DNA of 63,989 nt, counting the filler, from an uncultured Acidimicrobiia bacterium (GTDB lineage: Bacteria > Actinomycetota > Acidimicrobiia > Spongiisociales > JAOTWH01), in NCBI GenBank assembly GCA_964347285.1. It is 3 parts of 3 records of this genome, joined end to end, with 100 filler letters (N's around TTAATTAATTAA, not from the genome) between each part and the next. Parts side by side here need not be neighbours in the genome. Positions count along the whole stretch, not along the records: positions 26,161 to 51,890 come from CAYFYE010000029.1; 2 more parts are not named here. One strand, 5' to 3'. Within the stretch, counting starts at the first letter, position 1; every line of letters begins with the position of its first letter. Positions 40,901 through 46,900 of this stretch are shown one piece after another. Position numbers: made by a program.

Positions 40901-43900
40901 TCGGGGCGTTGTTCATGAGCTTGTCGACGGTCATCGTGGCCGCCAACGCGATGCTGTTGCGGCGGGTGCGTCTGACCTGAGCATCCTCAACCCGGCCGCC
41001 GTACCACTGCGAACCGGGTGGCATTGTCGGGCCTATCGATCACGTCGCAGGCCAGCACCTCGAGCCCGTAGGTTTCGGCCGCCTCCGGCGGCGCCAGCGC
41101 TCCCAAGGAGGGATCGGCGCGCTCGGCGACCCGTCGGGCCGCGCCGGCGGTGTCGTCGGCGGGTACCGCCTCCCAGCCCCGGTCCCGCAGGGTGTTCTCC
41201 GCCTGGGCGAGGGCTTGGGGGTGGGAGAGGACCCGCTCGACATCGTCGATACGAGACCCCACCGGTCCCAGCAAGGCGTGGCGGACCGAAACCCGGCGTT
41301 CGGCAACGACTTCGAAGTCGACCAGCCGCTCGGCGACCTCTGGGATCGGCCCCGTCGTCGAGTTTTCGACCGGCAGCACCAGCCGGTCCACCTCGCTCTG
41401 GGCCAGCGCCTCGAAGCAAGCCGCAAACGTGGGGAAACCGATGAGGGCCTCGCCGGGAAACAGCTCCTCGGCGGTCCGGTGGCTGTACGACTGAGGCTCG
41501 CCCTGGTAGCCGACCCGCATGGCCGGCCGACCCTAACCGGTTCTCTTGTCGGGGAGGCGGCGGGCGGCTAGAGTTCTCGCCCACATGAAATCGCATGCCT
41601 CCGTGTTCGGCTTCTTCTTTACCGGGCCCCCGGCCCGGGTCGAGGGAGCGCGCTGAGCACGTAGGCAGCAGAGAACCCGAAACCCGGAGCAGGGGCTCCG
41701 GGTTTTTCTATTCCCGGGGCCTCCGTTCCACAGAGGGAGGAGCCCGTCATGGAAGGAGACCAGGTTCTCAAGGCCCACCGGCGGCCCGGATCGCCGACGA
41801 CGATCGTCGAAGTAGGGGGGGTGCGCTTCGGCGACGGCGGGTTCCCGGTGATCGCCGGCCCTTGCTCGGTGGAGAGCGAGGCTCAAGTGATGGAAACCGC
41901 CCATGTGGTCGCCCGGGGCGGGGCGGCCATGCTGCGGGGCGGCGCCTTCAAGCCCCGTACTTCCCCCTACTCATTCCAGGGTCTCGGCGCCGACGGCCTG
42001 CGCCTGCTTCGGCGCGCCGGAGACGAGACCGGGCTGCCGGTGGTGACCGAGGCCATGGAGCCGGAGACGGTCGGCCTGGTCGCCGATTGGGCCGACATGA
42101 TCCAGATCGGCTCGCGCAACATGCAGAACTTCCCCCTGCTGAAAGAGGCGGGACGGAGGGGGCGTCCCGTCCTGCTGAAGCGGGGGATGTCGTCGACCAT
42201 CGACGAGTGGCTCCTCGCCGCCGAGTACATCCTCGAAGCCGGCAACGGCCGTGTGGTGCTCTGCGAGCGAGGGATCCGTACATTCGAGACTCGCACTCGG
42301 AACACACTCGACATCAGCGCCGTGCCGGTGGTGCGCCGGCTCAGTCACCTACCGGTCGTAGTCGATCCCAGTCACGCCGCCGGGGCCAGGGATCTCATCG
42401 TGCCGCTGGCGCGGGCCGGGCGGGCCGCCGGTGCCCACGGGATGATGGTCGAGGTCCATCCCCGTCCCGATCAGGCGCTCTCCGATGGGCCTCAACAGCT
42501 CGACGCTGGCGGATTTCGGGAATTGATGGAGGCGCTGGGCATCGGCACCCTCCGCGAGGAGATAGACCTGATCGACAGGGAAATCGTGCGCTTGCTGGCC
42601 GAACGCCTCCGTCGGGCCCTGGACATCGGCCGCGAGAAGACCCGGCGGGGCCTCCCCGTTCTCGCCCAGGATCGGGAGGAGGCGGTGCTCGACGGAGTGC
42701 GCCGGAGCGCCCGATCCCACGGCCTCGACGAACGCGCCACGGCGGAGCTGTTCCGGCTCGTCATCGGCCAGTCCCGGCTGGCCCAGGCCGGCTTCCGGGA
42801 CCGGGCTGAAGCCGCCGGCTGAGATCCGCGTCTGCGGACGAAGACCGGCGGGCCGCGGCCACAATGGGGGCCGTGACTGCGCCGATGACCCCGAGCCGTC
42901 TTGCCAACGTGGGCGCCCGGGCCGCTGTACACGCCTTCAGCCACTACCAGGACCGCTTCCGGGCCATTACCGGTCGGGCCAGGGGGCGTTTCGAGCAACG
43001 CGACTGGCACGGCGTGCAGGCCGACATGGTGGAGCGGCTCGACCTCTATCGCGACGTCATCGACGAGGTGACCGCCGAGATGCGCTCACTTCTGGGCGAT
43101 CACGTCGAGGACACGGTGACCTGGGCGAGCCTCAAGGCGGTCTTCTCGGGACTCATCGCCGATCGGGGCGATTGGGAGATCGCCGAGACCTTCTTCAACT
43201 CGGTCACCAGGCGCATCTTCGCCACGGTCGGCGTCGATCACCGCATCGAGTTCGTGGCGACCGATTTCGATTCGCCCCCCACCCGAGCCCCCCGGCCCCT
43301 CTTCTACCGCTACAAGTCCACCGGCAGCATCGAGGAGCTCATCGAGGCCATCCTCACCGACTTCCGCTTCGACGTGCTGTACGAGGATCTGCGCCGCGAC
43401 GCCAAGCTGGCGGCGGCCGCCCTCGAGCGTCATTTGCAGCAACGTGTGTTGCCGCTCGACATGGATGGCGCCGAGGTGGTCCGCCAACCTTTCTACCGGG
43501 GCCAGGGCGCCTACCTCATCGGCCGGCTGGTGACCGAAAGCGGGTACGTGCCGCTGGTGATCGCTTTGCGCAATCCCGCGGACGCCGTGGTCGTCGACGC
43601 GGTACTCATGGACGAGGACGACGTGAGCGTGCTCTTCAGCTTCACCCGCTCCTACTTCCACGTCGACATCGAGCGACCCTACGACCTCGTCCAGTTCCTC
43701 AGCACCCTGATGCCCGGCAAGCGCACCGCCGAGCTGTACACCGCCATCGGTCTGCACAAGCACGGCAAGACCGAGCTGTATCGAGAGCTGCTCGCCCACG
43801 TGGCCGCCGCCGATGACCACTTTGAGATCGCCTGGGGCGACCCCGGCCTGGTCATGGCGGTGTTCACGATGCCCGGCTTCGACTTCGTGTTCAAGGTGCT

Positions 43901-46900
43901 GCGAGATACCTTCGGTGCTCCCAAGCAGATCACCCGGGGCCGGGTGATGGACAAGTACCGGCTGGTGTTCCATCACGACCGGGCCGGGAGACTGATCGAC
44001 GCCCAGCCGTTCGAGCATCTGCAGTTCGATCGGAGCCGCTTTGCCCCCGACCTGCTCGAGGAGCTGGTGAGGGAGTGCTCGCGTACGGTCGAGGTCGAGG
44101 ACGACACCGTGGTGGTCCATCACGCCTACGTCGAGCGCCGGGTCCGTCCCCTCAATCTCCACGTGCGTCGAGCCGATTCGGCCGAGGCGGAGCGGGCCGT
44201 CATCGACTACGGCTACGCCATCAAGGATCTGGCTGCTTCGAACATCTTCCCGGGGGACATGCTGTTGAAGAACTTTGGAGTGACCCGCCACGGCCGGGTG
44301 GTCTTCTACGACTACGACGAGCTGGCTCTGCTCACCAGTTGCTCGTTCCGGGAGATGCCGGACACCGACCACTACGACGATGCGCTCTCCGATGAGCCCT
44401 GGTACGGGGTAGGCGAAGGCGACATCTTCCCTGAAGAGTTCCGTTCGTTCCTCGGCATGCCGGCGCCGCTACGCGCCGCCTTCGAATACCGTCACAACGA
44501 CCTGTTCGACCCTTCGTTCTGGCGCGGGTATCAAGAGCGCATCGAGGCCGGCGAAATCATCGAGATCTTCCCTTACCAGCCGGACCGAAGGCTCCACCCC
44601 AGCTCGGTGGAGTAGGGCTTGGGCCGGTCGATCGGCTGTCGGTGGCCGGACCATCGTGGGCCCGACGCCCGCTGGGGAGCCGGAGCCGTCATTGCCGGTT
44701 TTGTCGTTCTGGCGGTCCTCTTGCTGGCCGGCTGCAGCGGCACGGAAGAGGGCTCGGCCGGCCCCCCTCGGCTGGTGCCGACCTCCCTGGCTGTGCCGGC
44801 TTCCACGCCGGCACCGGCTCCTCCCGATGAGTCGCCGCAGGCCTTCACCTCCGGAGCGGAGCAGACGCCGGTCCCGGTGGCGGCCGTTCCCGCCAACGCC
44901 AGGATGGCAACCGCTCCGTGGGGGGAATGGGGAGAGTGCCCGACGTCGATCCGGTGGATGTGCTCCTCGCCGGGGTACCGGTGTGTGTGGTGGGCCTGTC
45001 CATTGCCGACGGGCCGGCGTGGGCGGTGGCGCTGGAGATCGGGACGGTCGAGGTGGTCACTATCGGGCCGGACGGTTCGGCCACGATCGCTCCTCTGGGT
45101 GTCTTGCCCCCGGGAACGCCCCCTGCCGTGTGGGTCGAACACGGAAGCGTGGCGTTGGTGCCGCGCCCCGGCGATGCTTCTCCCCTCAGCCATCCGTCGA
45201 TCGCCGCCGACGGCAGCGTGCTGGCGGTGCAGACCGACGGGACCGTCGCCATCGACTCCGGTGGCGAACGGGTCCGGGTTGCCGTCGGAGCCCTCCCCGA
45301 TGCTCGAATCGTCCTCGGCGACGGTCGAGCGCTGGTGCTGTTCGGCCCCACCGAGGACTACCGGCACGGGGTGCTCGGAGACGTCGTGGAGGCTTCTTTC
45401 ATCTCGGTCATCGACGTCGGCACCGGCTCGATGATCGCGATCATCGATGTTCCCGACGGCTTGGTGGTCGAGGGCCTGGCTCCGATCTGGACCGACCTGG
45501 ACGGGGACGGCCGGCGGGAGGCGATCGTCACGCTCAGCAACGCTGTCCAGGGTGCCCAACTGGCGGTGTTTGGCGGACCGGGGGCACCGGCGGCGCTGGG
45601 ACCGGCCATCGGACGGGGCAGCCGCCGGCGCCACCAGATCGCCGTGGCGCCGTTCGGTTCCTCCGGCGAGGTCGAGGTGGTCGCCGTACGCACCCCCCAC
45701 ATCGGCGGCATCGTGGAGTTCTATCGGCCGGCCGGTGATCGGCTCGACATCGTGGCCTCGGTCGACGGATTCACCTCGCACGTCATCGGCTCGAGGAACC
45801 GGGGTCACCTGCTGCGAACGGTCGTAGCGCCCCCTCCTCCACCTCAGCCGGTGACGTTGACCGTGGCCGTCATCGACGGATGGATGGAGCAGAAGTAGGT
45901 GAAGGTGCCCTCCTCCGTGAAGGTGTGGGAGAAGGTGTCGCCCTCTGCCATAGTCCCCGAGTCCCAGGCGCCGTCGTCGGCGGTGGTGGTGTGAGGGACG
46001 CCGATCTCGTTGTTGGTCCAGGTGACGGTGGTCCCCAACGGAACCGTGAGCATGTCGGGGCCAAAGGCGAACTCGACGATCTCAACGGCCGCGGGGTCGG
46101 CGGCCGGCGCGGCGGTGGTCGCGGGGACCTCGGTGGTGGCGGGAGCTGCGGTCGTCGGCGCCGCCGTTGCCGCGCCGTCACTCCCGCTGTCGCCACAGGC
46201 GGCGACTCCGAGGGCGAGCACGGCGATGAGGATGAGTTGTCTCACTGGCACCTCCTGGCCAACAATACGGTAGGCGGGGCCGTTCGGTTCGCGCTCACAG
46301 CTCCCCCACCCGGCATAGGGCCATCGGCGTGGTGAAGTGTCGATAGGCTCGGCGGCCATGTCGGAGATCGTCACTCAGCCCGACGACGTCACCGTCCCCT
46401 TCGAGGATGAGGTCAACCTGTTGGAGAGGCTGGTCGACGCCGGCATCCCCATCACCCACCTGTGCGGAGGGCGCGCCCGGTGCTCCACCTGCCGGGTCAA
46501 GATCGAGGCCGGCGGCAGCGGCCTCGCCCCGCGCACCGAGGCTGAGGAGGCCATGGCACGGCGGCTCGACTTCCCCGACGAGATCCGCCTGGCGTGCCAG
46601 ACCCGAGCGGCGGCGTCGCTGACGCTGCGCCGGCTGGTGCTTGACGAGGCCGACACGGCGCTGGCGAGCCAGCTTGGAAGCCACGCCTACTCCGGGCCGG
46701 TGGGGCGGGAGGTAGAGGTGGCGGTAATGTTCGCCGACGTCGCCGGCTTCACCTCGATCGCCGAAACCCTGCCCGCGTACGACGTGATGCACATCCTCAA
46801 CCGGTTCTTCACCGGGGCCAGCGACGCGATCGAGGCCAACGGGGGCCACGTCGACAACTACATGGGGGACGCCGTCCTGGCCCTGTTCGGGGTGAACCAC

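Follow-up and report, generated by a model that had tools for sequence, protein, structure and literature searches.

Can an actinobacterium control its glyoxylate shunt with a protein switch known from Escherichia coli? In E. coli, AceK switches isocitrate dehydrogenase (IDH) off by phosphorylation and opens the glyoxylate shunt, and its action where the TCA cycle and the shunt diverge is a textbook example of protein phosphorylation. PMC4999502 confines every AceK protein, known or putative, to Gram-negative bacteria, a statement that the first-pass annotation quoted verbatim; published work also states that Actinobacteria lack the IDH elements that AceK needs, and one review describes 'nearly all' (not all) Gram-positives as lacking AceK. 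The DNA analysed here (the window, 63,989 nucleotides from an uncultured member of the Acidimicrobiia) carries an aceK gene on contig C29 of the host genome (G000).

The conflict with the published view, as first drawn, needs to be softened. The gene is genuine and common in the order, but one review is less strict, the presence of aceK has already been tabulated and Chloroflexota carry it too; NCBI protein names record AceK in Acidimicrobiia, Actinomycetota and Chloroflexota. Likewise, the order paper (PMC12008989), initially said to have no mention of AceK, is silent in its main text, but its supplements list K00906 (aceK) and PF06315 and tabulate aceK in 40 of 98 genomes. Our literature searches, which did not extend to most subscription papers or bioRxiv supplements, turned up no paper that discusses AceK for Acidimicrobiia, Actinobacteria or Chloroflexota. 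In short, gene presence is already in databases and a published supplement, and the chemistry is known.

The AceK protein and its conserved residues

The gene (42864–44615, forward strand, as are all window features below) encodes 583 amino acids with no internal stops. A regulatory domain (PF20423, AceK_regulatory; residues 18–315, 42915–43808; E 2.5e-100) is followed by a kinase/phosphatase domain (PF06315, AceK_kinase; residues 318–572, 43815–44579; E 7.7e-108), and the protein scores 711.9 bits against the NCBIfam profile NF002804 (curated cut-off 488). The alignment with E. coli AceK (3EPS) first reported over residues 17–576 was reproduced (E 2.1e-125), with 37% identity, and an AlphaFold model (pLDDT 91.2) has a TM-score of 0.91 to E. 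coli AceK 6K5L.

Lys344 (43893–43895) corresponds to the ATP-site lysine Lys336 of E. coli (role from PMC3747045) and is present in all 70 order sequences. The catalytic loop D465-K469-N470 (44256–44273; E. coli D457, K461 and N462, with roles from the literature) is likewise kept at each position in 70/70. In the metal-binding DYDE motif (residues 483–486, 44310–44321), D483, D485 and E486 match E. coli D475, D477 and E478; the first two are invariant among the 70 order sequences and the third is kept in 67. The position of E. coli Asp371, a residue with a phosphatase role, is D379 in the host protein (D in 62/70 and E in 8/70 order sequences). Residues N112, S113, K299, K302 and Y306 match E. 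coli N104, S105, K291, K294 and Y298, presumably the AMP allosteric site; E376 is also kept, while H113 is replaced by T and N377 by H. The substrate-recognition loop (44337–44417; E. coli 484–510, limits from PMC12707098) is as long as its E. coli counterpart and retains the 'FR...D(E)L..EPW' frame, with 10 of its 27 residues identical.

At the level of sequence, the product of 42864–44615 is thus confirmed as a genuine and intact AceK, and the earlier description of a full-length protein with intact catalytic motifs stands.

Co-occurrence with the glyoxylate shunt and gene linkage

As first annotated, the host genome encodes malate synthase and isocitrate lyase (ICL), arranged as aceB-aceA on contig C13 (aceB, 4225–5823; aceA, 2936–4228). 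In a sample of 121 genomes of the order, AceK is present in 73 and ICL in 87. All 73 AceK carriers have an ICL match, which in one of them (G070, 74% complete) is partial and under the cut-off, and AceK is found in none of the 34 ICL-negative genomes. The claim that AceK occurs only with isocitrate lyase therefore holds for this sample but not strictly beyond it: two of the 40 AceK carriers in the published order table lack aceA (38/40 have it; PMC12008989), and one of five outside the order has AceK without ICL. Most ICL-positive genomes of nine families retain an intact aceK. The shunt is also present where AceK is absent, namely in 14 of 87 order genomes, 8 of 13 genomes of family f10 and 42 of 47 genomes of the small-genome family f78. 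Phylogenetically independent comparison on an IDH tree (68 rows) gave five supported pairs (three with the association, none against, two without difference; p 0.25), which is not significant, the sample being too small for significance.

In the host genome, aceK (C29), aceBA (C13) and icd (C44) are each on a contig of their own, and there is no aceBAK operon, aceK not being clustered with aceB and aceA. Of 70 order loci, many of them short in flanking sequence, 67 show no linkage of aceK to aceBA or icd. The other three loci (G031, G113 and G041, all of family f9) have aceB-aceA-aceK or aceA-aceK-aceB clusters, which bears out the aceK–icl adjacency first noted in G031. Adjacent icd and aceK occur in G323, whose AceK belongs to the same clade as the host copy, and an aceBAK arrangement is found in 10 of 23 Chloroflexota-titled loci.

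The neighbourhoods of aceK differ from family to family, and a GNAT acetyltransferase gene lies next to it in 16 loci. Upstream of the host aceK, a gene for a DAHP synthase that bears a chorismate mutase at its C-terminus (41749–42822) ends 41 nt 5' of the aceK start. This gene adjoins aceK in none of the 69 other order loci (at least 1.5 kb of upstream sequence is present in just 36 of 70), so a functional tie between the two is unsupported. A scan of 40900–45000 found no sigma-70 promoter or intrinsic terminator and is uninformative at such GC content. DNA contigs from two runs of one study map to the window; one from X1, which may be the source sample, covers 41928–43423 and spans the upstream gene and aceK.

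The isocitrate dehydrogenase as probable target

The host IDH gene (C44, 14278–15483) encodes an NADP-dependent dimeric enzyme (TIGR00183, 638.5 against a cut-off of 567.3), the sole evident IDH. The only other IDH-like match in the host genome is a 29%-identical protein on contig C7. No monomeric IDH exceeds the cut-off in any of the 121 order genomes, which leaves the dimeric IDH as the sole evident target of AceK. Its Ser102 corresponds to the phosphorylated Ser113 of E. coli, the phospho-loop is identical to that of E. coli IDH (KGPLTTPVGGGIRSLNV) and the loop serine is kept in 71/71 Acidimicrobiia IDHs examined.

The enzyme had been called an E. coli-type dimeric IDH with a phospho-serine loop. 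Its dimeric type, C44 coordinates and Ser102 hold up, but the E. coli affiliation does not: the best solved match is Bacillus subtilis IDH (1HQS, 585.7 bits, versus 536 for E. coli IDH), which has the same phospho-loop and is also closest in fold (TM 0.95). B. subtilis, which has no AceK among the control genomes, possesses a subfamily I IDH that is a poor AceK substrate; the literature blames a helical insert of ∼17 residues, and this insert is absent from the host IDH.

The shorter recognition strand first raised as a caveat is real: the segment has 33 residues versus 37 in E. coli, with a different sequence, and it is not of the E. coli (class A) type in the scheme of Yates et al. 2011, as relayed in PMC3521221. 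In the model it forms a short strand and a four-residue helix with a W-E-D-[SC]-G-G loop, and resembles the description of the archaeal IDH class reported as outside AceK regulation. Neither the phospho-loop nor the recognition segment has an AceK-linked signature: conservation of the recognition region is 0.773 in 36 AceK-positive and 0.771 in 19 AceK-negative genomes, and the smallest p across 406 IDH columns (4e-4) belongs to those that match E. coli residues 72 and 76.

The shorter segment counts for less than first feared, since a Xanthomonas AceK phosphorylates the IDH of its own host although that IDH has no such segment: X. sacchari IDH, modified in vitro (PMC12707098), is 93% identical to X. 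campestris IDH, which has no E. coli-type segment. In X. sacchari and Stenotrophomonas maltophilia, AceK works on IDHs that lack this element. Both of these hosts are Gram-negative and have a short IDH of the NAD type, not the NADP type of the order studied here; the short type resembles IDHs of two AceK-bearing Chloroflexota. A model of AceK with the host IDH gave weak support for binding, with a score of 0.54 (best control 0.00; contact agreement of 79% or more, partner pLDDT at least 76); a like complex (3LCB) is already solved, so the predictor may have reproduced it. The pass mark is reached by 116 of the 157 pairs with a solved complex and by 2 of the 215 mismatched pairs, but with scores at or below 0.60 by only 18 solved pairs and both mismatches.

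Our analysis shows an AceK that is intact, the serine at the target site, genes for the shunt, the nesting of AceK within ICL-positive genomes and the aceA/aceB or icd linkage in some relatives. AceK probably phosphorylates the host's only IDH reversibly and feeds the glyoxylate shunt. The vertically inherited and catalytically intact enzyme would modify the dimeric IDH at Ser102; on acetate or fatty acids this reversible phosphorylation would inactivate IDH, so that isocitrate would pass to isocitrate lyase and malate synthase. We infer AceK–IDH binding, phosphorylation, the flux effect and E. coli-like allosteric control. Counted against this reading are the shorter and different segment, an IDH nearest to the poor substrate of B. 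subtilis, the missing AceK-linked signature, the unlinked aceK, the shunt without AceK in kin and the non-significant pairs test.

Some of these points would also fit an active AceK whose target IDH, like that of B. subtilis, is poorly phosphorylated, with weak or partial inhibition and flux set mainly through transcription, acetylation or metabolites. Besides the B. subtilis-like IDH and a segment that is unlike E. coli and indifferent to AceK presence, this is favoured by the ∼75% inhibition that P. aeruginosa AceK achieves on its own ICD, the GNAT gene beside aceK in 16 loci and close kin that run the shunt without AceK. We consider it unlikely: the Bacillus blocking insert is missing, and retention of aceK in most ICL-positive genomes of nine families, with none found without ICL, is hard to explain for a near-inert system.

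A move of AceK to another acetate- or glyoxylate-linked substrate, such as a beta-decarboxylating dehydrogenase or a shunt enzyme, appears improbable. The low identity of the recognition loop and the family-specific neighbourhoods could suggest it, but loop length and frame are unchanged, the C7 protein is the sole other IDH-like match, icd adjoins aceK in G323 and X. sacchari AceK still acts on IDH despite 13 differing loop sites (PMC12707098).

Ancestry and substrate recognition

A binning artefact or recent transfer from a Gram-negative bacterium, which a metagenome assembly in 187 contigs with aceK, aceBA and icd on three of them might suggest, is refuted and scarcely credible: AceK occurs in 73 of 121 order genomes (single-contig G026 and G031 included), its closest relatives are in three genomes of the host's own family (65.6–66.4% identical, branch support 100/98), identity to E. 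coli AceK is just 37%, GC3 is 0.87 in aceK versus 0.86 in icd, C29 stands at place 51 of 89 by tetranucleotide distance and contamination is 0.46%. Trees (FastTree; IQ-TREE LG+G4 on 56 rows) and sequence identities confirm the host AceK as native to its Acidimicrobiia order, very likely UBA5794, and point to vertical inheritance. Chloroflexota also carry close relatives. Two separate origins within Acidimicrobiia were considered and not adopted: the best tree sets the Acidimicrobiales copies apart, but the AU test does not reject one common origin (p-AU 0.18).

The host system shares with E. coli AceK/ICDH and its aceBAK operon (3EPS, 3LCB, 6K5L and 4P69) the two domains, fold, catalytic and metal-binding residues, phospho-loop and shunt genes; it differs in its divergent AceK, unlinked aceK, recognition segment and actinobacterial host, in which no Omp85 was found. 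Mycobacteria and corynebacteria (PMC4999502, PMC9755347) are also Actinobacteria with a glyoxylate shunt, but AceK is missing from them and they depend on a monomeric IDH, together, in mycobacteria, with activation by glyoxylate.

We lean towards a broader view, in which the order ancestor already ran an aceBAK-type phospho-switch on a Bacillus-like IDH with a third, undescribed recognition segment, the short W-E-D-[SC]-G-G strand–helix loop. A wider environmental AceK clade (Acidimicrobiia, Anaerolineae and Planctomycetota) would then act on IDHs of different subfamilies, specificity would lie in the absence of a blocking hairpin and not in the E. coli segment, and 'Gram-negative only' would be a sampling artefact. 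A widespread actinobacterial order that keeps AceK by descent is a counter-example to that statement. Its IDH is also, in effect, a naturally occurring B. subtilis IDH that lacks the blocking insert.

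The aceK gene and its product

The gene for AceK (isocitrate dehydrogenase kinase/phosphatase) forms a stop-free open reading frame of 583 amino acids on contig C29 of the host genome (window positions 42864–44615, + strand; the window is made up of several contigs). Its product aligns with E. coli AceK over residues 17–576 (E = 2e-125), contains both AceK Pfam domains and scores 711.9 against an NCBIfam equivalog cut-off of 488, which bears out the full-length AceK reported in the first-pass annotation. The AlphaFold model (pLDDT 91.2) matches E. coli AceK with a TM score of 0.91.

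Residues were mapped in a 133-sequence AceK alignment, of which 70 sequences belong to the host's Acidimicrobiia order (68 of the 73 from the order-genome search and 2 from a wider class search; the partial or split sequences of G040, G057, G066, G084 and G098 were excluded). E. coli K336, D457, K461, N462, D475 and D477 are conserved in all 70 order AceKs, confirming the catalytic motifs as intact, and E478 is kept in 67. D371, whose role is presumed here, as are the AMP-site positions of AceK, is kept in 62 and replaced by E in the other 8. Roles of the catalytic and metal residues of E. coli AceK are described in passages of PMC6591243 and PMC3747045.

Among the AceKs of loci L209, L117, L245, L210 and L076, catalytic positions are changed to D457E (G663 and L117), K461R (G182 and G578) or D477N (L076). 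The kinase domain is split in two, in different frames, in G066 (C1, 136827–137590) and G098 (C2, 119359–120118), possibly through frameshifts or assembly errors.

Distribution with isocitrate lyase and previous records

AceK is present in 73 of the 121 order genomes (50 of the 90 high-quality ones) and in nine of the 12 families, while isocitrate lyase (ICL, aceA) is present in 87 (86 over the cut-off). All 73 AceK genomes are among the 87 with ICL and none of the 34 without ICL carries AceK, so the earlier statement that AceK occurs only with ICL in this order holds in a larger sample. The 34 include two unpublished genomes (G004 and G016), which are also counted in the 121 and in the 113 order genomes with a matched dimeric isocitrate dehydrogenase (IDH). 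Because kin genomes are not independent, the association was also tested on phylogenetically independent pairs (supported; IDH tree, 68 rows): three are with it, none against and two show no difference (p = 0.25). ICL occurs without AceK in 14 order genomes. Family f10 of the order (ICL 8/13, AceK 0/13) and family f78 of the class (∼1 Mb genomes; ICL 42/47, AceK 0/47) carry ICL but no AceK, so the glyoxylate shunt can do without AceK. Several f78 genomes carry two ICL types.

Outside the order, AceK appears in 1/152 class genomes, 2/294 phylum genomes and 3/200 Chloroflexota (the centre genome apart); ICL is present in four of five such carriers, and in G663 no match exceeds the cut-off. A GTDB pattern scan gave 75 AceK loci, of which 24 are Chloroflexota-titled and 14 Acidimicrobiia-titled; the remainder include Planctomycetota, deltaproteobacterial lineages and Betaproteobacteria.

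The restriction of AceK to Gram-negative bacteria, stated in PMC4999502, is restated in a passage of PMC6313988. The first-pass annotation found no mention of aceK in the paper on the host's order (PMC12008989). This stands for the main-text passages available, but the supplements list K00906 (aceK) in 40/84 free-living and 0/14 sponge-associated genomes and flag it as free-living-associated (counts from 12 of 15 supplement files); in our recount of these rows, aceA is present in 38 of the 40 aceK genomes. NCBI protein names also already include AceK in Acidimicrobiia, Actinomycetota and Chloroflexota, and our literature search found no paper discussing AceK in Acidimicrobiia, Actinobacteria or Chloroflexota. 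The host AceK is a known system in an unexpected lineage, though already annotated there.

The host genome is 90.5% complete with 0.46% contamination. A 609-aa stretch of its RpoB is 78–79% identical to two Acidimicrobiia-titled records, 69% to one Acidimicrobiaceae-titled record and 55–66% to an Anaerolineales record. The order is very likely UBA5794, because the AceK of a named record (L094, JACCTH01) nests within the order's AceK clade (FastTree) and the genus named after JACCTH01 is placed in UBA5794 by the PMC12008989 supplement. No Omp85 was found in the host genome, in keeping with a monoderm envelope.

Descent and gene neighbourhood

We inferred AceK trees with FastTree (133 rows) and IQ-TREE (56 rows); the large set took 56 of the 75 GTDB loci, with 14 not included (mostly near-redundant Betaproteobacteria) and five dropped as short. 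One branch bounds all order AceKs (support 99 in FastTree, 100/99 in IQ-TREE), along with those of named Acidimicrobiia and of a small number of outsiders belonging to other actinobacterial classes (G182 and G323) and Chloroflexota (G663 and L117). Strict monophyly, with these outsiders excluded, can be rejected (p-AU = 4e-7), consistent with transfers from the order to other lineages provided that the root is placed on the proteobacterial outgroup. The AceKs of Acidimicrobiales sit on a branch of their own, and a single origin is compatible with the data (p-AU = 0.18). Five of the nine families are single AceK clades (FastTree), mapping the families on the tree takes 11 changes, compared with 48 on average after shuffling, and the host AceK clusters with its own family (65.6–66.4% identity). 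The host aceK is a genuine and intact gene, native to its lineage. Two loci titled Chloroflexi and Melainabacteria (L085 and L086) have identical AceKs and are probably one organism under two labels.

A gene encoding a DAHP synthase that carries chorismate mutase at its C-terminus (41749–42822, +) ends 41 nt before aceK, an arrangement seen in no other aceK locus; divergent from it is a short, 177-aa prephenate dehydratase gene (40987–41520, −) with no further Pfam domain. The window also contains a 2Fe–2S ferredoxin fused with an adenylate/guanylate cyclase domain (46337–47269, +) and pyruvate phosphate dikinase fragments in two frames (47318–49133, −), which look like a broken gene. Among the 70 order loci (median flanks 2.6 kb upstream and 1.5 kb downstream), shunt clusters are present in three (aceB-aceA-aceK in G031 and G113; aceA-aceK-aceB in G041). 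A GNAT acetyltransferase gene lies beside aceK in 16 loci (L022 and 15 others) of families f4, f6 and f8. In an actinobacterium of another class (L246; G323:C69:8300-15300), icd directly precedes aceK, both on one strand; the IDH there shares 75% identity with the host's and the AceK nests in the order clade, which suggests a joint transfer. The gene order aceB-aceA-aceK recurs in 10 of 23 Chloroflexota-titled loci (L048, L049, L050, L057, L058, L068, L074, L076, L080 and L083).

The probable target IDH and its possible recognition by AceK

In the host genome, aceB (malate synthase) and aceA overlap on contig C13, and icd lies on C44 among TCA genes (neighbours judged by sequence starts). Monomeric IDH was not found in the host genome and has no match over the cut-off in the 121 order genomes. 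The host IDH (401 aa) has Ser102 at the position of E. coli Ser113 and retains E. coli K344, Y345, V351, Y391 and R395, three of which (Y345, Y391 and R395) are NADP-binding residues of E. coli IDH according to a passage of PMC6313988. The earlier description as an E. coli-type dimeric IDH is right for the phospho-serine but not for the closest solved relative, which is B. subtilis IDH (585.7 bits versus 536 for E. coli), also first by fold.

The first-pass annotation cautioned that the AceK-recognition strand is shorter than in E. coli, and it is: the E. coli 239–275 region has 33 residues, against 37 in E. coli, in 71/71 Acidimicrobiia IDHs (68 of the order's 113 and three named records), AceK-bearing or not. 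We found no difference in the recognition regions between AceK-positive and AceK-negative genomes. The modelled host region is a short strand with a four-residue helix, so the E. coli-type segment is absent. The corresponding B. subtilis region has ∼49 residues (PMC3521221), and the host IDH is ∼17 residues shorter exactly at this Bacillus insert.

The missing segment need not be fatal, because passages of PMC12707098 report in vitro phosphorylation of Xanthomonas and Stenotrophomonas IDHs by their own AceKs and name the Bacillus insert as the blocker, and because X. campestris IDH (93.4% identical to that of X. sacchari) wholly lacks the segment. Two Chloroflexota genomes (G124 and G125) contain only short IDHs (L198–L200), whose closest relatives are those of Methylococcus and Xanthomonas; they keep the phospho-serine but again lack the segment. 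The Chloroflexota aceB-aceA-aceK cluster is a candidate second monoderm AceK system, which would act on another IDH subfamily.

We also modelled a complex of the AceK kinase domain with IDH and the small domain of its second subunit. It scores 0.54 against 0.00 for the best control (contact agreement ≥79%, partner pLDDT ≥76). The pass mark was reached by 116/157 solved and 2/215 mismatched pairs, but only 18 of the solved pairs and both mismatches did so at ≤0.60. The model lends weak support to AceK–IDH binding, and its pass may reflect likeness only, since the E. coli complex is already solved. The host AceK most probably operates an IDH phospho-switch of the E. coli kind, and the variant substrate surface of the host IDH offers a clean experiment on AceK.
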